41,583 bases of DNA from NCBI GenBank assembly GCA_045603265.1, contig JAZULU010000150.1, forward strand, positions 1-41,583, in the 5' to 3' direction. The translations under genes and the position numbers were made by a program. Below the pieces are notes generated by a model, which worked only from the letters and a program-made list of their open reading frames with translations, was not told the DNA's origin and did no database searches. Positions within the stretch are counted from its first letter, which is position 1, and the number at the start of each line of letters is the position of its first letter. This stretch comes from Clostridia bacterium. GTDB lineage: Bacteria; Bacillota; Clostridia; Christensenellales; QALW01. Below are positions 2,316 to 41,583 of the stretch, piece by piece.

Positions 2316-3566
2316 ATGAAAATAAAAACTAAAGAACGCTCATTTGATGAAGTAATGGCAATAAAGAAACCAGAACATAAAAATCCGTTGAAACCTAATA
2401 TTTTGTTTTCAACGCTTATAAGGGTGCTTGCCATACCTGATATGATCGCAACAAAATTTTCATATACTTTTAAGGATAGGGATAAACTTGAAGAGGGTCC
2501 GTATCTTATTTTAATGAATCATTCAAGTTTTATTGATCTTAAAATCGCATCGAAGATTTTTTATCCCATGCCATATTCCATTGTGTGCACGTCTGATGGA
2601 TTTGTAGGCAAAAACTGGCTTATGCGCCTTATTGGATGTATCCCTACGCAGAAGTTTGTAACGGATATGACGCTTATTCGCGATATGCGCTATATGCTTA
2701 AAAAGAAAAATACCAGTGTTTTAATGTACCCTGAGGCAAGTTATACCTTTGATGGCACTGAAACACCTTTGCCCGAAAATTTAGGCAAACTTCTAAAACT
2801 TCTTGACGTGCCCGTTTTGACCGTAATTACAAAAGGCGCATTCCACCGCGATCCCTTGTATAACGGACTTCAACTGCGCAAAGTAAAAGTCAGCGCAGAG
2901 GTTAAATGTATCGCAACCCGTGAAGATATTAAAAAACTCTCCGTTGAAGAACTTTCCAAAAAACTTGAAGAAACCTTTACCTTTGATAATTTCAGGTGGC
3001 AGCAGGAAAAAAGTGTTGAGGTTAAAGAAAATTTCCGCGCAGATGGCTTGGAACGTATTTTGTATAAGTGCGCCCATTGCGAAAATGAGGGGCTTATGGA
3101 GGGGAAAGGTACAACTCTTACCTGCCATAATTGCGGTAAAGAATATGAACTTGATATTTACGGTGCGCTTATAGCCAAAAAAGGCGAAACGGAGTTTTTA
3201 CATATTCCTGATTGGTACAAGTGGCAAAGGGAATGTGTTAAAAAAGAACTTATTGATAAAACCTATTGCCTTGATACTCCCGTAAAAATCGGCATAATGG
3301 TTGATTATAAGGCGATTTATATGGTTGGTGAGGGTAGGCTTGTTCACGATAACAACGGCTTCACTTTAACCGGTTGTGACGGTAAACTTAATTATACTCA
3401 GCCGCCCCAGTCTTCTTATGGGCTTTATGCTGACTATTTCTGGTACGAGATAGGCGATGTTATCTGTATCGGCAATAAGGACAGACTTTATTATTGTTTC
3501 CCCGAAAAAGAGGGTGTCGTTGCCAAAACACGAATGGCGGCAGAAGAACTTTATAAAATGTGCTGA
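2316..3566 (+). CDS. Lysophospholipid (PlsC-like) acyltransferase with C-terminal Zn-ribbon-like extension
   Basis: NHSSFID (HX4D) and YPEAS motifs. CxxC...CxxC in the C-terminal half. Confidence 0.85.
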   Translation: MKIKTKERSFDEVMAIKKPEHKNPLKPNILFSTLIRVLAIPDMIATKFSYTFKDRDKLEEGPYLILMNHSSFIDLKIASKIFYPMPYSIVCTSDGFVGKNWLMRLIGCIPTQKFVTDMTLIRDMRYMLKKKNTSVLMYPEASYTFDGTETPLPENLGKLLKLLDVPVLTVITKGAFHRDPLYNGLQLRKVKVSAEVKCIATREDIKKLSVEELSKKLEETFTFDNFRWQQEKSVEVKENFRADGLERILYKCAHCENEGLMEGKGTTLTCHNCGKEYELDIYGALIAKKGETEFLHIPDWYKWQRECVKKELIDKTYCLDTPVKIGIMVDYKAIYMVGEGRLVHDNNGFTLTGCDGKLNYTQPPQSSYGLYADYFWYEIGDVICIGNKDRLYYCFPEKEGVVAKTRMAAEELYKMC

Positions 3567-3590
3567 GAAACACCGCGAAAGCGGTGTCCT

Positions 3591-3783
3591 TCAGAGCACT
3601 GACAAACCCCTGCAAACACAAACCCCTGCAAAATTTTTGCAGGGGTTTGTTTCCGTCGTTGCATCTCACTTGCAAAATGCGGTCATTTACGTCTGTGTAA
3701 ACTCCCTTTTTTGCAAGTTCGGCGCCTTGGCTTGCAAGGGTTTCTCGAACTCTGGCAGTCTGCTGGCTTTGTCAGCAGACTGA
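3591..3783. mobile_element. Putative MITE (193 bp) with imperfect 16-bp terminal inverted repeats, flanked by a 24-bp duplicated terminator
   Basis: Ends TCAGAGCACTGACAAA (3591-3606) and TTTGTCAGCAGACTGA (3768-3783) match 12/16 as inverted repeats. Flanks GAAACACCGCGAAAGCGGTGT(C/T)CT at 3567-3590 and 3784-3807. Internal hairpins, no credible ORF. Confidence 0.75.
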
Positions 3784-3893
3784 GAAACACCGCGAAAGCG
3801 GTGTTCTTTTTTTATAAAAACTTAATTTAGTTGATTTTTACGGCATATTATGATATACTACCAGAACATTATATGCGAAAGTGATGACAAAAA

Positions 3894-4478
3894 ATGGAAT
3901 GGGATTTTATGTTTTTCTTTAACAGTGTTTTGTTGGGCGTAGGATTGGCAATGGATGCTTTTTCAGTATCCTTGGCAAACGGACTTAATGAGCACGATAT
4001 GAAGAAAACAAGAATGTGCGGTATTGCAGGGGTTTTCTCCTTTTTTCAGTTTGCGATGCCTTTAATCGGTTGGATATGCGTTTCCACCGTTGCCAAATAT
4101 TTTGAAGCCTTTGAAAAATGGATTCCCTGGATCGCCTTTGTTCTCCTTGGCTATATTGGCGGACAGATGCTTTATGAGGGCATAAAAAACAAAGATTCCG
4201 ATGGGGAAAAACCGGCAGTAGGCTTTGTTGCTTTGCTTGTTCAAGGCGTTGCAACCTCCATTGATGCGTTATCTGTTGGCTTTACGATTTCCGATCACGA
4301 TTTTATCCACGCACTTGTTGCGTGCATTGTAATTGCAGTAGTAACTTTCTTTATATGTATGGCAGGCTTGTTCTTAGGCAAAAAGTGTGGCACTAAACTT
4401 GCAGGAAAAGCAAGCATCTTAGGCGGCGCAATTCTTTTATTTATCGGGTTGGAAATATTTATTACAAGTTGGCTTTAA
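3894..4478 (+). CDS. mntP: Manganese efflux pump MntP family
   Basis: GLAMDAFSVS and ATSIDALSVG signature motifs, multi-TM. Start may be a few codons downstream. Confidence 0.9.
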   Translation: MEWDFMFFFNSVLLGVGLAMDAFSVSLANGLNEHDMKKTRMCGIAGVFSFFQFAMPLIGWICVSTVAKYFEAFEKWIPWIAFVLLGYIGGQMLYEGIKNKDSDGEKPAVGFVALLVQGVATSIDALSVGFTISDHDFIHALVACIVIAVVTFFICMAGLFLGKKCGTKLAGKASILGGAILLFIGLEIFITSWL

Positions 4479-4482
4479 ACGT

Positions 4483-4509
4483 AAAACACCGCAAGATTGC
4501 GGTGTTTTT
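4483..4509. terminator. Bidirectional terminator (near-identical copy at 5382-5408)
   Basis: AAAACACCGCAAGATTGCGGTGTTTTT between convergent genes. Confidence 0.8.
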
Positions 4510-4927
4510 ATATTATATTTATAACTTGTTTATTTTTCTTTTGCGCAAGTTCTTTGAATTTTGAAGCACCGCCAAAGGGGCGGCTTACACAAGTGATGAC
4601 CGTATCGGCTTTTTCAACAAGCCAGCGATTTCTTCTGTCTATGGCATAGTTTGGCGGAACGCTTTCAAGACCCTCAGGGTAGATAGTTTCAAAACCATCT
4701 AACAGATCATCTTTGGGCATATATGCAAGCACAACGTAAAATCTTATATGGGGAAATTTTTCTTTAAGTTCTTTCAGCGTATTTCTTACAATACTGTCAA
4801 AACGCCCTTGATTACCTACATAAAAAAGATCTGCCTGATGATTTAATATAAGATCGGTTAGAACTTCATACAACTTGGGTTTTACACTATCAGAAGTATT
4901 TTTATGTCCGAAAAATGTGCATATCAT
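4508..4927 (-). CDS. Conserved hypothetical protein, probably SLOG superfamily (YpsA/DUF1273-like)
   Basis: N-terminal CTFFGH, FYVGNQGRFD, AIDRRNRWLVEKAD, GGA motifs and a KQVINI end. Confidence 0.65.
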   Translation of the reverse strand: MICTFFGHKNTSDSVKPKLYEVLTDLILNHQADLFYVGNQGRFDSIVRNTLKELKEKFPHIRFYVVLAYMPKDDLLDGFETIYPEGLESVPPNYAIDRRNRWLVEKADTVITCVSRPFGGASKFKELAQKKNKQVINII

Positions 4928-5066: not shown

Positions 5067-5375
5067 ATGGAAAGAAACGATTTCGGTTTACGACTTTCGC
5101 AGTTAAGATTGGCAAAAGGCGTTTCGGCACGAGATATGAGTCTGAGTATCGGTCAAAGCGCAGGATATATAAATAATATTGAAACAGGCTTCAGTTATCC
5201 CTCGATGACAGGTTTCTTTTATATATGTGAGTATCTTGATATAACTCCCGCTGAATTTTTTGATACTGATTCAAAATCACCTACCAAGGAAAAAGAATTG
5301 ATTGAAGCAGTAAAAGGTTTAAAAGCAGAACAGTTAGATAATTTAATTGCTCTTGCAAAAGGTTTGAAAAAATAA
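5067..5375 (+). CDS. XRE-family HTH transcriptional regulator
   Basis: RLSQLRLAKGVSARDMSLSIGQSAGYINNIETG HTH pattern. ATG at 5067 preferred over 5055 on RBS spacing. Confidence 0.88.
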   Translation: MERNDFGLRLSQLRLAKGVSARDMSLSIGQSAGYINNIETGFSYPSMTGFFYICEYLDITPAEFFDTDSKSPTKEKELIEAVKGLKAEQLDNLIALAKGLKK

Positions 5376-5381
5376 AAAGAA

Positions 5382-5408
5382 AAAACACCGCAAATTTGCG
5401 GTGTTTTT
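5382..5408. terminator. Bidirectional terminator
   Basis: AAAACACCGCAAATTTGCGGTGTTTTT between the convergent HTH gene and rpmE. Confidence 0.8.
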
Positions 5409-5419
5409 TGTTGTAACGA

Positions 5420-19908: not shown

Positions 19909-21546
19909 TCAAGCCTTTTTAACAATTATAACCCAATCTTCTTTTGTAGGACGTTTAGGAAGTGTAAATGAGCCGTTCACTACTGTTGCAGGCATTTCTT
20001 CAAGATAGATATTTTTTCTCGGATCGTACCACTGATAAGTATAGGAAGCGTTTTTATCCATATTTTTAACTGTTCCCGTTATATCGGTTGTTACGTCGTC
20101 GATCTTATCATAAAAATATGCGATGTACAGTTCATCACCAATGTGCGCGCAGGAATAATAACCGTGATCTGCTTTAAAATGTTCATTTAGATCAAAACAA
20201 GGCTCTAAACGCCACCACTCAAATGTTTCAAAGAACTGTTTAAGATAACCCATTTCAATTCCGCCGGGAAGATCAATGGTTTTGCCCCAGGGAAGAAGTT
20301 TCTCTTCAACCGTCATTGTAAGACCGTCGCGGACTGTTGGATTTTTTATATCGTAAGAACTCTTATAAAGCCAAATATCAACTGCGCCGTAGCCGTGACC
20401 GTACATTCCGTTTAAAAAAGCAAGCCAGCCTTGGATTCTTGCACCAACTGAATTGGTCCATAAAAGTTCGTAACGTGCTTCATATACGATGGAGGGTTTG
20501 TTTTGACCGTTGAACCAATAGTCCATAGCACCTGTAAAATCAAGAGGGGCATTTAAAACGGGTTTCCATTGATTTGCCCACCAGGTGTGACCTTCAACAT
20601 CACGAAATGCGGAGTTTACTGCAGTAGTAAATTTGCCGATAAAGTAAGAGCCTTCCTGATGCCCCGAAATAGGCTGCTTTAATGGATCGTATTTATACAT
20701 CCATTTGCAAACGTCTTTATAGGGGTTGTTTTCTGCCGTCATGGTCTGATTGGTTTTTAAACATTCAAAATAGTAAAAATCATTATCGATTTCCTGACCT
20801 AACGTCCAGAGGCAGGGAAATGCTGAAAAACGTGCAACCCAATAACGGGAAAGATCATGAAGCAACGTTTTGTAATCGGGGTTAGTGTTCATAAGCGTTA
20901 TCATTTCTCGCGGAAAGAAAAACTGTGCGTTGGCGTGAACTAAACCTTGATCTGCAATATATTCATAATATTGATCGGCACGTTTTAAAGCGATAATGTC
21001 TTTTTCGTCAATGCCGTCCATCATGTTATAGCCCGTTTCGTTGGGCTCGGTCTGATAGACCGTATATCCTTGCTCAACACGCTTATCAACTATGTATTTA
21101 AAGTGGGAGTCACATTCTATATCGCAGGCGTGATCACCGGGGGAATCAAATTCTTCTGCCATAAAATTCCAATGGGTGTCGCCTAAATAGAAGAATGGAG
21201 TACCGTCAGCATAAACAAAATACTGTTTGTCGGGATGCGTTGTTACAAATCCGTGCTTAAATATTTCAAGATCGCCTGAATATTTTTTACACTCAACAGT
21301 TCCCGTAACGTTATCTAAAAAACTATCTTCTTTGCAAAGAGTTTTATATTCCCATGTGCCTGCTTGGGGAAGAGCAAAGCGCAAAACCCATTCTTTTTTT
21401 CCGTTCCAAAATCCGGGAACTAAAAGAGTTTTGTTGCCGTTGGTTATCTCCATATCAAGAATAACGTCATGAATGGGATTTTCATATTCTTTTGATGCAG
21501 AAAGAACTATTTGACATTTGCGCCACGTTTCAGCAAATAATTTCAT
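19909..21546 (-). CDS. DUF5060/DUF4038 (apiosidase-like, GH140-related) protein, no signal peptide
   Basis: VPGFWNG, RFALP..GTW, YADGTPFFYLGDTHW, YWVARFSA, YEARYE, GHGYG, WYDPR...EDWV C-terminal module. Confidence 0.8.
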   Translation of the reverse strand: MKLFAETWRKCQIVLSASKEYENPIHDVILDMEITNGNKTLLVPGFWNGKKEWVLRFALPQAGTWEYKTLCKEDSFLDNVTGTVECKKYSGDLEIFKHGFVTTHPDKQYFVYADGTPFFYLGDTHWNFMAEEFDSPGDHACDIECDSHFKYIVDKRVEQGYTVYQTEPNETGYNMMDGIDEKDIIALKRADQYYEYIADQGLVHANAQFFFPREMITLMNTNPDYKTLLHDLSRYWVARFSAFPCLWTLGQEIDNDFYYFECLKTNQTMTAENNPYKDVCKWMYKYDPLKQPISGHQEGSYFIGKFTTAVNSAFRDVEGHTWWANQWKPVLNAPLDFTGAMDYWFNGQNKPSIVYEARYELLWTNSVGARIQGWLAFLNGMYGHGYGAVDIWLYKSSYDIKNPTVRDGLTMTVEEKLLPWGKTIDLPGGIEMGYLKQFFETFEWWRLEPCFDLNEHFKADHGYYSCAHIGDELYIAYFYDKIDDVTTDITGTVKNMDKNASYTYQWYDPRKNIYLEEMPATVVNGSFTLPKRPTKEDWVIIVKKA

Positions 21547-21547
21547 G

Positions 21548-23944
21548 TTATTTCACCTTTTCAACCACTATTACCCAATCTTCGGCTGATGGTTTTTCAC
21601 CGATCACAAACTGACTGCCTTTTTCAATTTTTGTTTTTGAGCCTGAAACGTTTGTTCTGGGATTGTACCAATAATAGGTGTAGTCGGCATTTTCATCAAG
21701 ACCTTTTAAGGTGCCCGTCAGAACGGTGCCTTCTTTAGAAATGTCGTCATAAAGATATCCGATATAAAGATCGTTTTCGACCTTTGCAAAGGAATAGGTG
21801 CCTGTTTCACTTTCAAAAACGTTTTTATCATCAAATACGGGAATGAGATTCCACCACTCAAACTGTTCAAGGAATTCTTTCATATATCCCATTTGATAGC
21901 CGGACGGAAGTTCAATGGATTCACTCCAAGGCATTGCTTTTTCTTCTGTAGTTATTGTGATGCCGTCGCGGACAGTATCATTTTCGATATCGTAAGAACT
22001 CTTGTAAAGCCAAATGTCAACTGCACCGTAGCCGTGACCGTACATGCCGTTTAAGAAAGCAAGCCAGCCTTGAGCGCGGGCACCGTACTCTTTAGTCCAA
22101 AGGTTATCATATCTGCCTTCATAAACAACGGCAGGTTTACCTTGTCCGCTTGCCCAGTAATCTCTTGCACCTGAAAAATCAAGAGGCTGATTAAGCTTTG
22201 GCTTCCACTGGTTTGCCCACCATGAATGACCTGTAACGTTACGGAAAGCGGAGTTTGAAGGCGTAGTGTAATTAATTACTGTACTTGCACCTTCCTGGTG
22301 TGCGGAAATGGGACTTTTGTGTGGATCGTATTTATAAATACACTCACAAACGTGCTTCCATGGATTGACTTGGCTGTTCATGGTAGTGTTTGCTTTTGTG
22401 TTTTCGTTGTAATAATAGTCGTTATCAACTTCCTGAGCCAAAGTCCACATTACGGGATAGGCTGAGAAACGAGCAACCCAATAGCGTGAAAGTATATCAA
22501 GATAATCATTGTAGTTTTCCATTTGCATAATGGTTTCGTTCATGGTTGAAGCAAAGAAGAACTGTGCATTTGCGTGAACTAAGCCCATATCGGCAATATA
22601 TTTAAAGTATTTATCGGCATTTCTGAAACCGCTGATATCTGCTTGTGTTATACCGTTGGTAAGATCGAAGCCTGCACCGATAGGCTCACTCTGATAAACG
22701 GTGTATCCCTGGGAAACACGCTTGTTCACAATATATTTAAAGTGAGAAGTTGTGTCTATATCGCCTGCGTTACTGCCTGCTTTATCATATTCTTCCGTCA
22801 AAAAATTCCAATGTGTATCGCCTAAGTAGAAGAAGGGTGTGCCGTCATTATAAACAAAATATTTTTTGTTGGGATCAACTTTTATAAAACCGTGTTTGTA
22901 AATTGCAAGATCACCTGAATATTTTGTAACGTTGATAGTGCCGGAAATATTATGAAGTCCTGAATCGGCAGTATCTGAAAATACTGTTGTGAAAGACCAA
23001 GTACCTTCTGCGGGAAGTGCAAAACGAACATGCCAGATATTTTCACCGTCCCAGAAGCCGGGGACGATCATTTCGCTTTTGTCTTTTTTAAATATAACGT
23101 CAAATTTCGCGCTTGCAACGGGATCTTTAATATCTGTCTGTGCAATAAAAGTCATTTCGTTGGCGATCCACGTTTCGGTTTCGGTAATAAGTTTCTGTGT
23201 TTCGGGGGCAGATTCTCTTATTACTTTGCCGATAACAACGTTATCAATATAAATTTCTGTAACTGCTTCGTTTATCATGTGCATACACAAATGCCAACCG
23301 TGAGATTCGCCGTCAATATCCTCAGGTTGTACTTCAAGGGAAAATTCGACGGTCATCCAATCTTCAATATCTCCGTCAATGGTGGCAGAAACGGGGTAGC
23401 GGTAGTTATCATTGCTGGGACTTTTTACAATAAAGGAGTTTGCGTCCTCCGAGCCATTACCACGAATAATCATTTCAAATGGGGCGCCTGAAATGGTGTC
23501 AATATCTTCGCCACCCAATTTAATGCTGAAAGATATGTTGTATCTGCCTGCCTCTTTAATAACGGAAGCAAGATTTATTGCAGGCGATGACCATGCATTT
23601 TTACCTTCTGAATATTTTATACATTGCGTTCCGTCGGCAGAGAAAAGTTCAATTTTTCCGCTTGCGTAGCCAAACCAACCTGAATCTTTTACGTTGGTAA
23701 TGCCGTCAAAAGTTGCCTTCTCCTCAGGAAGTATATTTACAACGCGTTCAACAACGTCATTGTCGATAGCGTCGTTGGTTACGGGTTGTATTTTGTTGGG
23801 GACGGGCGTTGTTGTAGCCAAAACATCAACAGTAGGCTGTGCTTCTGCCGATGGATCAGGCGAAGTTTGAGTATTGTTGTTACAAGCAACTGCTATAAGA
23901 AAAATCACAAAAACAAGTAAAAGTGAAACAAAACGCTTGTTCAT
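21548..23944 (-). CDS. Lipoprotein with CBM-like domain and DUF5060/DUF4038 apiosidase-like module
   Basis: Lipobox-like IAVAC, P/T linker, beta-sandwich-like segment ending IYIDNV, then the same motifs as the downstream paralog. Confidence 0.8.
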   Translation of the reverse strand: MNKRFVSLLLVFVIFLIAVACNNNTQTSPDPSAEAQPTVDVLATTTPVPNKIQPVTNDAIDNDVVERVVNILPEEKATFDGITNVKDSGWFGYASGKIELFSADGTQCIKYSEGKNAWSSPAINLASVIKEAGRYNISFSIKLGGEDIDTISGAPFEMIIRGNGSEDANSFIVKSPSNDNYRYPVSATIDGDIEDWMTVEFSLEVQPEDIDGESHGWHLCMHMINEAVTEIYIDNVVIGKVIRESAPETQKLITETETWIANEMTFIAQTDIKDPVASAKFDVIFKKDKSEMIVPGFWDGENIWHVRFALPAEGTWSFTTVFSDTADSGLHNISGTINVTKYSGDLAIYKHGFIKVDPNKKYFVYNDGTPFFYLGDTHWNFLTEEYDKAGSNAGDIDTTSHFKYIVNKRVSQGYTVYQSEPIGAGFDLTNGITQADISGFRNADKYFKYIADMGLVHANAQFFFASTMNETIMQMENYNDYLDILSRYWVARFSAYPVMWTLAQEVDNDYYYNENTKANTTMNSQVNPWKHVCECIYKYDPHKSPISAHQEGASTVINYTTPSNSAFRNVTGHSWWANQWKPKLNQPLDFSGARDYWASGQGKPAVVYEGRYDNLWTKEYGARAQGWLAFLNGMYGHGYGAVDIWLYKSSYDIENDTVRDGITITTEEKAMPWSESIELPSGYQMGYMKEFLEQFEWWNLIPVFDDKNVFESETGTYSFAKVENDLYIGYLYDDISKEGTVLTGTLKGLDENADYTYYWYNPRTNVSGSKTKIEKGSQFVIGEKPSAEDWVIVVEKVK

Positions 23945-24446: not shown

Positions 24447-24522
24447 TGGCACCCCCAAGGGGATTCGAACCCCTGTTGCTGCCGTGAGAGGGCAGTGTCC
24501 TAGGCCACTAGACCATGGAGGC
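24447..24522 (-). tRNA. tRNA-Glu (CTC)
   Basis: Cloverleaf with anticodon arm CTGCC-CTCTCAC-GGCAG, GTTCGAATC T-loop, encoded CCA and a G1:U72 wobble. Confidence 0.96.
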
Positions 24523-24525
24523 ATT

Positions 24526-24599
24526 TGGCTGCGGAACAAGGATTCGAACCTTGACAATACGAGTCAGAGTCGTAGGTGCTGCCGTTACACAATTCCGCA
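24526..24599 (-). tRNA. tRNA-Gln (CTG)
   Basis: Acceptor stem TGCGGAA/TTCCGCA, anticodon arm TACGA-CTCTGAC-TCGTA, GTTCGAATC, encoded CCA. Confidence 0.96.
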
Positions 24600-31588: not shown

Positions 31589-32683
31589 ATGAAGAACATT
31601 ATTCCCCAATACAATGCACCTGATTTTAATGAAGAAAAATTTAAAAATGCTCCTGACGTAAAATTTCAGGAGGTTGAAATTGACGGCGTTGCACCTGATA
31701 ATTATCACAGCACGTCAATGTTCCCCGAATATTTTAAGATTTCGGGGCAATGGGTTTTAGCCAAAAAGAGCCGTATGGATTCTTCGGTTGTCATTGGCGA
31801 TGAATTAAAAGTTGTAGAAAACAGAAATCTTAAAAAAGGCGATAAAGTTGTTTTGGGAAGAACTGAAAACTGCGAAGACGGCATTTACGTTCACTCAAAA
31901 GGCTTTGAAGAAAAGATCGATGAAGAACAGGAAAACTTTGTGTTCAGGCAGGGAAGAAGCAGGGAAACCGCTTTTGCAAAGGATTACGATAAACTCATGG
32001 AGTTGCTTAAATACGAAAAAGAGCACGGCAATATTTTATGGGTAATGGGTCCTGCGTTTTCCTTTGATTACGATGCAAGAAACGCTATGGCTTCACTTAT
32101 TGATAACGGCTATGCTCACGGACTTATGGCAGGTAACGCCCTTGCAACCCACGATCTTGAGGGCGCTCTTTTAAATACTGCATTAGGTCAGGATATCTAT
32201 ACACAAAGACCTCATAAAAACGGTCACTATAATCATCTTGACGTTATAAATAAGGTTAGAAAAAGCGGATCTATTCCGCAGTTTATAAAGGATCATAACA
32301 TTGATAACGGCATTATGCACAGCCTTGTTAAAAATAACGTGCCTTTCGTTTTAACCGGCTCTATCCGCGATGACGGTCCTTTGCCCGAAGTAATAGGTGA
32401 TGCTTATGAGGGACAGAAAAAGATGCGCTCATTTACCGAGAAAGCAACAACGGTAATTTGCCTTGCAACAATGCTTCACACCATTGCAACGGGCAACATG
32501 ACTCCCTCTTTTACCGTAAATGAAGATGATACCGTGCGCCCCGTGTTTTTATATTGCGTAGATGCCGATGAGTTTATGGTAAATAAATTATCCGATCGCG
32601 GAAGTTTAAGTGCTGTAGGCATCGTTACAAACGTGCAGGATTTTATAACGATCATTGCCAAAGGACTTGGGGTAATGAAATAA
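31589..32683 (+). CDS. LOR/SDH-domain (TIGR00300/ArgZ C-terminal-like) protein, putative ornithine cyclodeaminase
   Basis: GVAPDNYHST, RMD, GNALATHDLE, GSIRDDGPLP, LHTIATGN, KLSDRGS. Confidence 0.8.
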   Translation: MKNIIPQYNAPDFNEEKFKNAPDVKFQEVEIDGVAPDNYHSTSMFPEYFKISGQWVLAKKSRMDSSVVIGDELKVVENRNLKKGDKVVLGRTENCEDGIYVHSKGFEEKIDEEQENFVFRQGRSRETAFAKDYDKLMELLKYEKEHGNILWVMGPAFSFDYDARNAMASLIDNGYAHGLMAGNALATHDLEGALLNTALGQDIYTQRPHKNGHYNHLDVINKVRKSGSIPQFIKDHNIDNGIMHSLVKNNVPFVLTGSIRDDGPLPEVIGDAYEGQKKMRSFTEKATTVICLATMLHTIATGNMTPSFTVNEDDTVRPVFLYCVDADEFMVNKLSDRGSLSAVGIVTNVQDFITIIAKGLGVMK

Positions 32684-39788: not shown

Positions 39789-39852
39789 CGTTTGCAAAAA
39801 AATGGTATATGTTGTAGAATATAATCAACAACTTGAAAGGAAGTATTTTAAA

Positions 39853-40419
39853 ATGGATAAGTTTATTATTGAAACAAGCGCACGCCATGTGCATGTATCT
39901 CAGGAAGCTCTTGAAACTCTTTTCGGTGCAGGCTATACTCTTACACCTAAAAAGGATCTTTCACAGCCCGGTCAGTTCGCTTGCGAAGAACGCGTTACCG
40001 TTGTTGGCACAAAGAAAGAACTTGCAGGCGTAAGCATCTTAGGTCCCGTTCGTCCTGCAACTCAGGTTGAACTTTCCGCAACCGATGCACGTTCTATCGG
40101 TGTTGGCATCGCTATTAAGGAATCAGGTGACGTTGCCGGTACACCCGGTTGCAAACTTGTTGGCCCTTGCGGTGAAGTTGAGATTTCTGAAGGCGTTATC
40201 GTTGCAAAGCGTCATATACATATGACTCCTGCCGATGCTGAAAAACTTGGCGTTAAGGATAAAGAAATTGTTGCTGTTAAGGCTGAATCAGCAGAACGTT
40301 CCTGCATTTTTGAGGACGTTGTTGTTCGCGTTAGCGAGAAATTTGCTTTAGCAATGCATATTGATACTGATGAGTCTAATGCGGCTTATGGTGTAAAGGA
40401 AGGCTATATCGTAAAGTAA
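39853..40419 (+). CDS. pduL: Phosphate propanoyltransferase / PduL-type phosphotransacylase
   Basis: SARHVH, LSQPGQF, LGPVR, AKRHIHM, MHIDTDE. ATG at 39853 preferred. Confidence 0.93.
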   Translation: MDKFIIETSARHVHVSQEALETLFGAGYTLTPKKDLSQPGQFACEERVTVVGTKKELAGVSILGPVRPATQVELSATDARSIGVGIAIKESGDVAGTPGCKLVGPCGEVEISEGVIVAKRHIHMTPADAEKLGVKDKEIVAVKAESAERSCIFEDVVVRVSEKFALAMHIDTDESNAAYGVKEGYIVK

Positions 40420-40444
40420 CAGAGCACGACAATTCTTCGAAACC

Positions 40445-40475
40445 ATCCCCCTTATTTGTAAGGGGGATTTTCTTT
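40445..40475 (+). terminator. Terminator after pduL
   Basis: ATCCCCCTTA-loop-TAAGGGGGAT plus T run. Confidence 0.75.
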
Positions 40476-40900
40476 GTTGTGCGGAGGATAAAAGCTCAAT
40501 TACTTACGCTTATGTAAGCGCATTCGCTTTTACCTCCCCACGCCTTGAATTTCGAATTTTGTCGCACTCTGTTTGTGCGCGGTGAATTGTCGGCTTTAAT
40601 CACTTGTTCACCTGATTTTCAAGTTTTTTTGCACTGCTCTGATATCTATTTAATATTAAATAAGCCACCGAAAATCGGTGGCTGCTTCTTTGTTGCGCGG
40701 AGGATAAAAATTCAATTACTTACGCTTATGTAAGCGCATTCGCTTTTACCTCCTCACGTCTTGAATTTCGAATTTTGTCGCACTCTGTTTGTGCGCGGTG
40801 AATTGTCGGCTTTAATCGCTTGTTCACCTGATTTTCAAGTTTTTTTGCACTGCTCTGATCTGTTTAATATTAAACAAGCCACCGATCTCGGTGGCTTCTT
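40471..40900. repeat. Two tandem copies of a 216-bp structured repeat
   Basis: Copy starts at 40471 and 40687 (TCTTTGTTG..CGGAGGATAAAA). Near-identical throughout. Each copy ends in an AGCCACCG-loop-CGGTGGCT hairpin. Confidence 0.92.
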
Positions 40901-40915
40901 CTTGATATAAAGAAA

Positions 40916-41583
40916 AACCACGCGATAGTCGCGTGGTTCAGTAAAGGTTTACCGGTGAGGATTGAAAAGAAACTCCGATTGTGTATAATGAAAGTATGAC
41001 CTGCCAGTCAGAAATCAAAAACACAATCGGAGGATATTAAAATGAAAGAATCATCTAATACCACAAATAGTTTAGCACACACAAAATGGAATTGCAAGTA
41101 TCATATTGTATTTGCACCAAAATATCGCAGAAAAGTTTTCTATGATGAACATAGGATGGAAGTGCGAGGAATATTAAGACAATTATGTGAGTGGAAAGGC
41201 GTAGAAATAATAGAAGGTGAAGTATGCCAAGATCACGTACATATGTTAGTAAGCATCCCGCCCAAAATGAGCATTTCGGTGTTTATGGGATATTTGAAAG
41301 GGAAAAGTGCAACAATAATATTACAAAGGTTTGGAAATATGAAATTTGCATTCCGAAATCGCGAATTTTGGTGCAAGGGATATTATGTAGATACAGTAGG
41401 AAAAAATACAAAAGCAATACAAGAATATGTTGCAAACCAGTTAAAAGCGGATAGAGAGGCAGATCAGTTGAGTTTGTTCGATCCACGCGACCCGTTAACG
41501 GGTAGCAAGTAACCAATGCATGACTGGCAGGTCAACAAAAGAGCACATTTGTGCTAAGCCAGTGAATAAGGGCTATGCCCGAA
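40916..41583 (+). mobile_element. IS200/IS605-family element, truncated by the window edge
   Basis: Subterminal hairpin AACCACGCGA-TAG-TCGCGTGGTT (40916-40938) followed by tnpA. Exact left cut site not determinable and right end not reached. Confidence 0.85.
41042..41512 (+). CDS. tnpA: IS200-type Y1 HUH transposase
   Basis: SLAHTKWNCKYHIVFAPKYRRK, DHVH (HUH), LKGKS, FWCKGYYVDTVG, EYVANQ. Confidence 0.97.
   Translation: MKESSNTTNSLAHTKWNCKYHIVFAPKYRRKVFYDEHRMEVRGILRQLCEWKGVEIIEGEVCQDHVHMLVSIPPKMSISVFMGYLKGKSATIILQRFGNMKFAFRNREFWCKGYYVDTVGKNTKAIQEYVANQLKADREADQLSLFDPRDPLTGSK

Follow-up and report, generated by a model that had tools for sequence, protein, structure and literature searches.

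An ERIC-like hairpin in a Clostridia genome as the probable central module of a MITE-like repeat with relatives in several phyla

Can a hairpin in a Clostridia genome share the structured center of ERIC, a repeat that the accessible parts of two papers place only in Enterobacteriaceae and Vibrionaceae (PMC10969869; PMC3184786)? The question is raised by positions 3653-3729 of contig JAZULU010000150.1, of which the whole 41,583-nt stretch was analyzed (hereafter the window). A sequence-only reading of the window recognized the core of ERIC in this hairpin and related it to two further repeats, and it inferred a cross-phylum structured module carried by otherwise different MITEs. To our knowledge, neither the enzyme that mobilizes ERIC nor a reason for the conservation of its center has been identified.

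Direct inspection of the sequence bears out the arrangement of motifs that had been described. Positions 3729 to 3653 read, on the minus strand, CCAAGGCGCC-GAACTTGCAAAAAAG-GGAG-TTTAC-ACAGAC-GTAAA-TGAC-CGCATTTTGCAAGTGAGATG-CAACGACGG, and the minus strands of 40471-40555 and 40687-40771 read CAAG(G/A)CG..GCG-CTTAC-ATAAGC-GTAAG-TAA..CAACAAAG. The extent first given to the unit (3653-3729) is too small, as the module reaches 3737 and the entire element covers approximately 3592-3779 (table 1). The core of the flagged copy forms a 5-bp apical stem atop a GA/GA internal loop that is closed by a G.T pair. Boundaries of the element, a member of subfamily A, are identical in at least 10 copies of the source MAG (G000; blastn and genome searches) and recur in sister-species copies of up to 98% identity. 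Metagenome contigs stack up on 3591-3783 only, and reads indicate that the element is multicopy in gut metagenomes (at most 0.13 of sampled words in every run). The left copy of the terminator hairpin that flanks it is cut off from its own T-tract and was not called in the terminator scan; the small internal GC hairpin was likewise not called in the scan of 3500-3900. At the other end of the window, the type 2 element begins 1 nt past the stop codon of the ORF at 39802-40419, and the third copy of the module belongs to a tandem repeat of 40470-40643 with a 216-nt unit (97% identity over 174 nt at a spacing of 216). The internal hairpin of the type 2 element was considered as a captured target-site terminator, and this was rejected because relatives without the element have a different terminator at the site.

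Table 1. Positions and strands of repeat elements, modules, and hairpins in the window
Feature	Position	Strand	Basis or remark
Complete A-subfamily element, ~188-194 nt	3592..3779	-	+ strand: CAGAGCACTGAC...GTCAGCAGA
ERIC-like hairpin module, 85 nt	3653..3737	-	nhmmer match, profile positions 1-83 of 85; fold; member of alignment A1
Conserved core GGAG-TTTAC-ACAGAC-GTAAA-TGAC	3682..3705	-	Invariant or near-invariant alignment columns; common to E. coli ERIC
Left copy of duplicated host terminator hairpin (CTGAGAAACACCGCGAAAGCGGTGTCCTT)	3563..3591	+	29 nt, 97% identity with 3780-3808
Right copy of duplicated terminator hairpin, T-tract still 3'	3780..3808	+	Terminator-like call at 3786-3805
Small internal GC hairpin (CCCCTGCAAAAATTTTGCAGGGG)	3623..3645	-	U-rich sequence past the hairpin on either strand
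Extra terminal hairpin of the A subfamily (GTCTGCTGAC-AAAGC-CAGCAGAC)	3758..3780	-	Kept in other A copies
Type 2 element, 150 nt	40421..40570	-	5' TIR, module, CAACAAAG, built-in small hairpin, 3' TIR; length bounded by TIRs
Element-borne terminator-like hairpin serving the upstream + strand gene	40445..40468	+	Terminator scan
Module, window copy 2, 85 nt	40471..40555	-	Core 40500-40521; R3 29.1 bits, E 0.002; R2 60.2 bits
Bidirectional terminator-like hairpin between tandem units	40663..40683	Both	Terminator scan; second copy at 40876-40897
Module, window copy 3, 85 nt	40687..40771	-	Core 40716-40737; R3 20.8 bits, E 0.26

The three modules belong to a large family in their own genome. Iterative nhmmer searches of the 2.36 Mb Bacillota MAG yielded 94 matches to the 85-nt module, all three window copies included; 89 are intergenic, and gene contexts are convergent for 29 versus divergent for 2. 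The module is a long irregular hairpin with GA-rich internal loops (GGAG/TGAC) and the flanks AAGGCG and CAACRCAG. Its 5-bp apical stem, YTTAC/GTAAR, is invariant and bears a free loop of 4-7 nt, and a conserved G.T pair closes the GGAG/TGAC loop. Whole elements are imperfect palindromes of 120-195 nt with variable TIRs and with stems that vary and covary. In 27 copies, the TIRs AGAGTGCGAGAAAA / ATTTCTCGTGCTCT delimit units of 122-125 or 150-155 nt. The core pattern GGMGYTTACN{4,7}GTAARTRAC has 55 matches in the MAG versus none for the reversed control. A loose TIR pattern (up to 3 mismatches) was uninformative, with 319 matches versus 317 in the control. Other short repeats were found inserted into elements of the family, and such insertions have been reported for ERIC as well.

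Folding energies and patterns of substitution support the structure. Window copies fold into long hairpins with MFEs of -27.6 and -29.7 kcal/mol (z = -3.2 and -3.5 relative to dinucleotide shuffles). Covariation of the stem, which the sequence-only reading had seen in the window copies, is confirmed across 43 copies of the family (alignment A1), where 15 of 22 RNAalifold pairs have compensatory double changes. In a second alignment of 55 copies from other lineages (A2), 89.3% of cells pair, compared to 61.3% after shuffling and 35-39% when partners are slid, and double changes occur in 18 of 22 pairs; A2 was fitted to the model, which favors the structure. Pairs of G.T far exceed those of A.C in A1 (94 vs. 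6; 54 vs. 6 without the conserved G.T pair), indicating that one of the strands is the folding strand. Searches of Rfam at gathering score returned only two tRNAs for the whole window and only a tmRNA for ten loci from other phyla, and nothing near threshold was found for 3540-3830.

The relation to ERIC was examined with covariance models in both directions. The ERIC core as given in the sequence-only reading, GGAG-CTTAC-ATAA-GTAAG-TGAC, is present in copies fetched from E. coli K-12, as are the flanks, (C)AAGGCG upstream and CCAACGCAG / GACGCAG downstream. Model R1 was trained on G000 only, R2 on 55 members that are neither enterobacterial nor from G000, and R3 on 14 E. coli K-12 ERIC copies only; E-values of all covariance models come from a shortened calibration. 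Failure of an ERIC-trained model would have refuted the proposed kinship, but R3 run on the whole MAG and counted at E ≤ 1 gave 44 matches, every one of them full length and a copy of the nhmmer family (best 47 bits, E = 5e-8). The flagged copy at 3653-3737 is not listed by R3 at this threshold; three of its subfamily siblings are (E of 1e-4 to 0.03). In the reverse direction, R2 had 14 matches on the whole E. coli K-12 chromosome, and each of them is an ERIC (best 43.9 bits, E = 9e-6). Because the loci behind R2 were preselected by an exact core match, the contribution of the core to its scores is partly circular. R1 reached an E of only ~0.9 on E. coli, with an alignment mostly confined to the 26-nt core. 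A sequence-only nhmmer profile of 11 near-identical E. coli copies found nothing significant in the MAG; its best match was a site outside the family (E = 0.22), and matches to the family had E of 0.71 and 9.2. The failure of the sequence-only profile and success of covariance models imply that the shared signal is structure plus core rather than the primary sequence of the stems. A structured module shared with ERIC across phyla is thus supported by covariance models in both directions and the absence of an Rfam match. The accessible parts of the MITE literature confine ERIC to Enterobacteriaceae and Vibrionaceae (PMC10969869; PMC3184786).

Members of the family are present in other phyla. 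R1 finds full-length members in Bacteroidota, Gammaproteobacteria, Campylobacterota, Deferribacterota, Patescibacteria, and Staphylococcus, with 73 matches at E < 0.01 in 75 loci that were fetched via the core pattern. Full-length scores of 58.5 bits in Mucispirillum, 43.6 in Patescibacteria, 41.9 in Bacteroidales, 40.9 in Pseudohongiella, and 35.2 in Helicobacter are well above the 16.6 bits that R1 assigns to the commonest E. coli ERIC core alone. With up to 150 candidates scored in each genome, R2 counts at E ≤ 0.01 are at least 26 copies in Marinilabilia rubra, 20 in a Pseudohongiella MAG, 14 in a Mucispirillum MAG, 11 in Staphylococcus petrasii, and 1 in Neomelitea salexigens. In ERIC and all the other lineages, AAGGCG and CAACRCAG lie at matching distances from the core. 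There are also intermediates between the family and ERIC; examples are copies in nonenteric Gammaproteobacteria and an ERIC of Serratia whose loop has 7 nt. The view of the carriers as otherwise different MITEs is probably wrong. Judged from their sequences, they probably form one superfamily with a whole architecture in common (TIR, AAGGCG, stem, core, stem, CAACRCAG, TIR). We consider it highly probable that a MITE-like repeat of the ERIC superfamily has this hairpin as its central module.

Features that define ERIC are shared only in part. Like ERIC (also IRU), the family consists of intergenic, multicopy, imperfect palindromes of ~125 nt with TIRs, has the core GGAG-YTTAC-loop-GTAAR-TGAC, and has AAGGCG and (C/G)AACGCAG at equal spacing; its TIR-bounded units of 122-125 nt and predominantly intergenic location satisfy the definition of ERIC as an intergenic palindrome of ~127 bp with TIRs. 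In contrast to ERIC, the family has an apical loop of 6-7 nt instead of 4 nt and unrelated sequences in stems and TIRs; a terminator hairpin is carried by some of its subtypes, and insertion of the A subtype duplicates a terminator hairpin in full. ERIC has a TA dinucleotide at both termini, according to the accessible part of one source (PMC3184786), whereas the 27 TIR-bounded copies have no consistent TA or other short duplication. The host range also differs, as the family resides in Bacillota (Clostridia), to which the nearest clusters of a neighboring protein belong, and has relatives in five or more further phyla or classes. With a host outside Enterobacteriaceae and Vibrionaceae, we file the family as a variant or superfamily and not as ERIC proper. 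In the portions of the literature that were available, no ERIC relatives outside Gammaproteobacteria were found, but the supplementary MITE clusters of one study could hold members (PMC11602168).

Elements of the family behave as MITEs. They are small, noncoding, multicopy, and bounded by TIRs, and A copies additionally have target-site duplications and a polymorphism of filled and empty sites. The A element is up to 98% identical across sister species, yet a search of 20 further species of the genus recovered it in only 10 (E ≤ 0.001). At the site that follows the ORF at 2316-3566, two relatives (G006 and G011) have a plain single terminator and no element, and the full A element is also absent from the other relatives with a match. 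Intrinsic terminators are the insertion sites of the 194-nt subfamily, whose orientation is fixed and whose insertion duplicates the entire terminator hairpin. This duplication is present around 14 of 19 A copies (9 of 12 in G000 and 5 of 7 in sister genomes), with a host hairpin of 15-28 nt that differs at every locus. The T-tract is on one constant side in all A copies where this could be judged, and one element of a different Clostridiales lineage is associated with a 25-nt duplication. Clear target duplications are absent from the 122-125-nt and 150-155-nt subtypes and from the elements examined in other phyla, so hairpin-sized duplication may be special to A-like architecture. Class C group II introns insert directly 3' of the stem-loop of intrinsic terminators in a fixed orientation. 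The A element also goes in after a terminator stem-loop in one orientation, but it has no intron RNA and no reverse transcriptase, is shorter than 200 nt, and duplicates the whole hairpin. No description of hairpin-long duplications at terminators was found in the parts of the literature that could be consulted.

The factor that mobilizes these elements is purely inferred because no gene recurs beside them. A recurring transposase or nuclease neighbor, which the sequence-only reading had suggested looking for, did not materialize in 80 loci of ~8 kb each from many taxa. All-against-all comparison of ORFs in these loci recovered housekeeping families only and no transposase, and a cognate autonomous element with the same ends, expected of a MITE, was not found in them. 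A long variant was considered as the autonomous element and rejected, as it has no ORF and proved to be an A element into which a second MITE of ~330 nt is nested, not an IS. Readings as attC, retron, omega-RNA, or bridge-RNA were dropped on copy number and motifs, as judged by eye.

Combining what is observed with what is inferred, we favor, with a probability of roughly 0.6, a non-autonomous MITE-like repeat that belongs to a cross-phylum superfamily including ERIC (IRU). The conserved core would serve in cis as the recognition site of a trans-acting factor as yet unidentified, which could be a host protein or a transposase, and would be read on one folded strand as a hairpin or cruciform. 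Such a site would account for conservation of the palindrome at its tip, but not at its ends, across phyla. We put forward a role of the core in transposition only tentatively, at somewhat below even odds, and whether the core acts as DNA or RNA is unresolved. The choice of target would be structure specific, with cleavage at both feet of a terminator hairpin, which would leave a duplication equal to the hairpin in length. After insertion, elements may serve neighboring genes as terminators or 3'-end modules. The fixed polarity relative to the terminator is not predicted by symmetric attack on a cruciform and counts against this explanation. We regard as speculative, and on balance doubtful, the larger proposal of a mobilization system that spans phyla, reads folded ssDNA or a cruciform, and integrates at terminator hairpins via structure-specific cleavage at their two feet. 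Correia/NEMIS, RUP, BOX, and SPRITE, a terminator-like repeat of S. pneumoniae, are likewise small, noncoding repeats with TIRs or hairpins at the ends of genes, but each is confined to one genus or family and has its ends as the defining feature, whereas here the tip of the hairpin is conserved, and across phyla. Some such MITEs supply terminators or RNase sites, according to the accessible part of one source (PMC10969869).

Selection on the core could instead operate on RNA. Once transcribed, the hairpin, with its GA/GA loops and G.U pairs, could be bound or cleaved by an RNase or RNA-binding protein of wide conservation, and the core would then be kept constant across phyla by selection for mRNA 3'-end stability or termination and not for transposition, a possibility that we rate as unlikely but do not set aside. 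The excess of G.U over A.C pairs indicates selection of structure on one strand, elements are downstream of genes in contexts that are far more often convergent than divergent, and terminator-like hairpins occur in some subtypes. Tandem G.A motifs are typical of RNA, but tandem G.A and G.T pairs are stable in DNA too. A 185-nt contig from a metatranscriptome library covers 3650-3785; it shows neither strand nor level of expression and, because DNA can be present in libraries of this type, is weak support. According to the available portions of two papers, ERIC is reported to change the decay of mRNA in Yersinia via RNase E (PMC10969869; PMC3184786). Against a role in RNA, the folding strand in G000 is antisense to local genes in 12 of 15 tandem-gene loci and opposite most of the coding sequence in 49 of 63 copies, so most read-through mRNAs would contain the strand with the weaker fold. 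Upstream of the elements, no conserved promoter was found. TIRs, hairpin duplications, and patchy presence within the genus are also left unexplained by a role in RNA.

In view of the gene neighboring the tandem copies, an alternative is that a Y1 (HUH) single-strand transposase (IS200/IS605 or RAYT type) reads the folded strand at the replication fork and that the repeats, like REPs, are its substrate. An intact IS200-type tnpA (41042-41512; Y1_Tnp, 137.8 bits) is ~270 nt from these copies. The family resembles REP/BIME and their RAYTs in having structured, strand-specific intergenic hairpins 3' of genes, an orientation bias that suggests a single-strand phase, and, in the window, an adjoining Y1 transposase gene. 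Strand-specific structure fits a Y1 substrate, as does the lack of target duplication in the 122-125-nt subtype, and orientation tracks GC skew in 40 of 44 loci of G000 and 9 of 9 in Pseudohongiella. Orientation is unbiased relative to skew in Marinilabilia (4 of 11) and in E. coli K-12 (8 of 14, with oriC and terminus at the positions that we assume for them), a difference between lineages that counts against the favored explanation. Against a Y1 substrate, the folding strand is on the negative-skew strand, the leading-strand template, which is opposite to the placement reported for IS200/IS605. Of 5 other carrier genomes tested, 4 have Y1_Tnp, but so do 6 of 14 control genomes, which makes its presence in carriers uninformative. 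Only one of nine Y1 loci, that of the window, has a module within ~1.5 kb; those in G015 and G004 and six in four other carriers do not, so repeats do not flank the Y1 genes of carriers as they do in REP and RAYT systems. One genome with 38 matches to the A-element query (G012) has no Y1 match, nor does S. petrasii with its 11 or more copies. Y1 transposition leaves no duplication, and A copies have hairpin-long ones. The module is 85 nt in length compared to 20-40 nt for REPs, and the GTAG-type motif that REPs carry at the 5' foot was not noticed in the family, although no explicit search was made. A Y1/IS200 mobilizer is not supported, and we regard it as improbable.

Last, convergence or chance among unrelated palindromic repeats with a similar short hairpin tip is very hard to credit as the source of the resemblance to ERIC: the failure of the sequence-only profile, the weak and mostly core-limited match of R1 in E. 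coli, the lack of common sequence in stems and TIRs, and the near absence of the core pattern elsewhere in the phylum of the MAG (a single match in 400 other genomes) would be in keeping with it, but covariance matches are specific and full length both ways, the two flanks are spaced alike in ERIC and other lineages, and members from intermediate lineages bridge the gap, such that pure chance is largely refuted and even convergence would, in such detail, indicate a common functional constraint.

Sequences of ERIC have been in use for decades in ERIC-PCR typing. Placement in a superfamily of MITE-like repeats, the reading that we favor, turns ERIC from an enterobacterial curiosity into a widespread family with members in Clostridia, Bacteroidota, nonenteric Gammaproteobacteria, Campylobacterota, Deferribacterota, Patescibacteria, and Staphylococcus. 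A family of this breadth makes comparative genomics possible, with profiling of co-occurring proteins, and several carriers are cultured and usable in experiments. Many copies are at the ends of contigs, indicating that the elements break MAG assemblies, and elements supply or displace transcription terminators, which is relevant to annotating the genomes of gut Clostridia. Hairpin-sized duplication at terminators is a concrete and testable clue to mechanism. If the proposed mobilization system exists, the size of a DNA structure (15-28 bp here), instead of a constant stagger, would determine how long the target duplication is. Transposition would then proceed in a way not described before, and ERIC would have a mechanism.

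The module at 3653-3737 reads, on the minus strand from 3737 to 3653, TTGCAAGCCAAGGCGCC-GAACTTGCAAAAAAG-GGAG-TTTAC-ACAGAC-GTAAA-TGAC-CGCATTTTGCAAGTGAGATG-CAACGACGG, and folds into a long hairpin (-27.6 kcal/mol; z = -3.2 relative to shuffles). The other two modules (40471-40555 and 40687-40771) share this layout; their tip reads GCG-CTTAC-ATAAGC-GTAAG-TAA. The sequence-only reading of these hairpins was accurate. Iterative nhmmer searches seeded with one copy converged on 94 matches to the 85-nt module in the source assembly (G000; 2.36 Mb, 275 contigs, 38% GC), of which the window is contig C150. The family consensus core, GGGAG-TTTAC-ATAAAC-GTAAG-TGAC flanked by CAAGGCG and GCAACACAG, is more like ERIC than is any single copy. 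In two alignments, one of 68 full-length copies plus flanking sequence and a cleaner one of 43 modules, the apical TTAC and GTAA are invariant and the GA-rich loops near-invariant, and the stems differ wholly from copy to copy with pairing nevertheless kept. For the 43 modules, RNAalifold predicted 22 pairs, 15 of which show compensatory double changes. G.T pairs exceed A.C pairs (94 vs. 6; 54 vs. 6 without a single conserved G.T pair), implying that structure is selected on one strand, named S, which is the minus strand of the window in all three window copies. Pairing of GCGAAGGAG with TGACTGAGC and GCGAGGGAG with TGACCGAGC, done by eye only, suggests a continuous irregular helix containing two tandem G.A/A.G motifs with two Watson-Crick pairs between them.

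A sequence-only profile of 11 Escherichia coli K-12 ERICs, retrieved by the primer-derived core, fails to find the MAG family. A covariance model of the 43 modules (R1) yielded eight matches in the whole K-12 chromosome at E ≤ 10, all of them ERICs; the best E was only ∼0.9 and most alignments covered the core alone (16.6 bits). A second model (R2), built from 55 members of other lineages, gave 14 full-length matches in K-12 (best 43.9 bits, E 9e-6), corresponding to the 11 known copies and three diverged ERICs; in two of these three the apical stem covaries (CGTAC/GTACG and CATAG/CTATG). A third (R3), trained on 14 E. coli copies only, recovered 44 matches in G000 (best 47 bits, E 5e-8). All 44 are family members, so the ERIC-trained model recognizes this family and nothing else in the genome. 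These two-way matches uphold the earlier inference of a structured module common to ERIC and present across phyla.

A scan of one genome per species with the core pattern GGAGYTTACN{5,7}GTAARTGAC matched at least 118 stretches; we estimate that chance would give roughly 200 matches in the whole collection. Among the matches listed, nearly every one has the full architecture, and R1 applied to 75 of these core loci produced 73 matches at E < 0.01, almost all full length. Those listed include isolates (Marinilabilia rubra, Geofilum, Neomelitea salexigens, Staphylococcus petrasii, and S. pettenkoferi) and MAGs of Bacteroidales, Alistipes, Pseudohongiella, Sulfurovum, Sulfurimonas, Arcobacteraceae, Helicobacter, Mucispirillum, and Patescibacteria. 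Numerous MAGs of gut Clostridia or Christensenellales-like bacteria are also among them, as is a Serratia ERIC whose loop has 7 nt. When 55 of them, excluding G000 and enterobacteria, were fitted to the model, paired cells amounted to 89.3% (61.3% in shuffles; 35–39% with slid partners) and double changes occurred in 18 of 22 pairs of this model-fitted alignment. The module is multicopy in four genomes of other phyla (26, 20, 14, and 11 copies by R2). Distribution is very patchy; elsewhere in the phylum to which the MAG belongs, 400 genomes (278 genera) yielded one single match to the core pattern. A very short (387-nt) contig of S. pettenkoferi has two core-bearing copies 210 nt apart, suggesting that the family fragments staphylococcal assemblies too.

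Searches with the window, the element, and loci from other phyla found no Rfam family matching the hairpin. In the portions available, reviews from 2024 and 2011 give the ERIC host range as Enterobacteriaceae and Vibrionaceae (PMC10969869, PMC3184786), and a 2024 MITE census based on 95% identity clusters has no bacterial cluster across phyla (PMC11602168; supplements not covered). As far as the searched literature was accessible, it describes neither ERIC relatives in other phyla nor hairpin-long duplications at terminators.

Carriers of the module fall into subtypes, and other repeats lie within them (table). Bounds of types 1 and 2 derive from 27 copies with both TIRs. The small type 2 hairpin varies in sequence among copies, and such hairpins were scored as terminator-like, once on both strands. 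The element at 40421-40570 starts one base past the stop codon of ORF 39802-40419, and relatives without it have a different, plain terminator at the site, indicating that its hairpin is element-borne rather than captured from the target. Family copies are nested and arrayed, some repeating in tandem every 142 or 216 nt. Two have a second repeat at the hairpin tip. A second MITE, with TIRs of about 24–27 nt (ATACTATAGCGCACGCAAAGGAGT...), sits within the 3' arm of an A element; this composite is amplified in sister species G012 and G007 (16–17 matches) and breaks several G000 contigs.

Module carriers and other features (G000, source MAG; G012, sister genome; G444, Pseudohongiella MAG; unprefixed coordinates are of the window)
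Feature	Location	Length	Description
A subfamily	3592-3779	194 nt	Holds the 3653-3737 module; extra terminal hairpin and internal hairpin
Type 1		122-125 nt	Palindrome with TIRs AGAGTGCGAGAAAA and ATTTCTCGTGCTCT at ends
Type 2		150-155 nt	Extra small GC-rich hairpin between CAACAAAG and 3' TIR
Second repeat (GGGGTCCCCGAAAAGC...GCTTGTGCTGAC)	G000 C160:5316-5425; C259 about 31600-31727	~110 nt	Exactly at apical loop
Nested MITE	G012:C33 (locus L207) about 3790-4010; G000 contig ends C105, C258, C23, C152, C151	~330 nt	
Tandem array	G000 C149:37-345		Contig start; ~40-nt period, 6-7 units, each with TIR motif AGAGTGCGAGAAAA
Module cluster	G444:C1:3849824-3850419		Five modules in tandem, 128-nt period
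Second module cluster	G444 3677908-3678514		Five modules
Terminator-like hairpins (AAAACACCGCAAGATTGCGGTGTTTTT)	4478-4520; 5370-5412		Near-identical, inverted, bracketing ORF 4508-4927; ACACCGC stem type, as in the two terminator copies at 3563 and 3780
IS200-type insertion sequence	40918-41583		Reaches window end; tnpA ORF 41042-41512
Two adjacent tRNA genes	24450-24599 (-)		Rfam RF00005, 59.4 and 55.5 bits
Direct repeats	20212-21314; 21851-22953		Spacing 1639 nt, 70-79% identity (families D1, D2, D4); probably a tandem paralogous gene pair

Sister species carry the A element at up to 98% identity, yet among the 20 other species of the genus searched it was found in only 10 (E ≤ 0.001). The window copy follows ORF 2316-3566, which encodes a lysophospholipid acyltransferase (nearest clusters in Bacillota). 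At the orthologous position, G006 and G011 lack the element and show one lone terminator, ACACCGCG...GCGGTGT followed by Ts; the full A element is also absent there in the remaining matching relatives. In the window, this terminator hairpin occurs once on each side of the element (3563-3591 and 3780-3808; 29 nt, 97% identity), and only the right copy retains the T-tract and is scored as a terminator. Local hairpins, 15–28 nt long and different at each locus, are duplicated around nine of the 12 A copies in G000 (of the other three, two have hairpins that differ between the sides and the third is nested) and around five of seven in sister genomes. A GC-rich MAG of a different Clostridiales lineage has an A-like element between 25-nt duplicated hairpins. 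Hairpin duplication is a general rule for the A subfamily; it was not found for the 27 TIR-bounded copies of types 1 and 2 or for simple elements of other phyla. The left junction always lies 0–4 nt inside the T-tract, and the T-tract never changes side relative to the element. Together, these data imply that A insertion is polar and targeted to intrinsic terminators, and that the length of the stretch duplicated follows hairpin size.

According to crude ORF calls, 89 of the 94 G000 matches are intergenic, and convergent gene pairs surround 29 vs. two in divergent pairs. Copies were grouped into 66 loci, 44 of which had a single orientation and 8 kb or more of context. In 40 of the 44, S is the negative-GC-skew strand, as it is in 14 of 17 when only convergent contexts are considered. 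The same bias is present in a complete Pseudohongiella chromosome (9/9 loci) and absent in M. rubra (4/11); in K-12 the orientation holds for 8 of 14, judged relative to oriC and the terminus. Polar insertion at terminators of replication-co-oriented genes may account for the bias in G000, but the two explanations are not separable.

We favor a reading, inferred rather than demonstrated, in which the core would be a cis-site read on the folded strand by an unknown mobilization factor. Action of the core at the RNA level instead is a serious rival. Under the preferred cis-site reading, elements of the A-like architecture would insert at terminators in a structure-specific way, again by inference.

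Comparison of the neighborhoods of 80 loci revealed no recurring transposase near the elements. The window has an intact tnpA (156 aa; Y1_Tnp, 137.8 bits) ∼270 nt from the tandem modules. The IS200-type element to which it belongs has a terminator-like hairpin (40915-40939), and another stem (CTCCGATTGTGT...ACACAATCGGAG) could occlude the ribosome-binding site. Y1 genes in G015, G004, and four other carriers have a module nearby at 0 of 8 loci, and some copy-rich carriers have no Y1 match at all. The proximity of the window's Y1 gene to the tandem modules is probably incidental.

The finding is real, and this Clostridia MAG carries a palindromic MITE family of ERIC type. ERIC itself is a single branch of a superfamily that spans phyla and is defined by its structured hairpin core.
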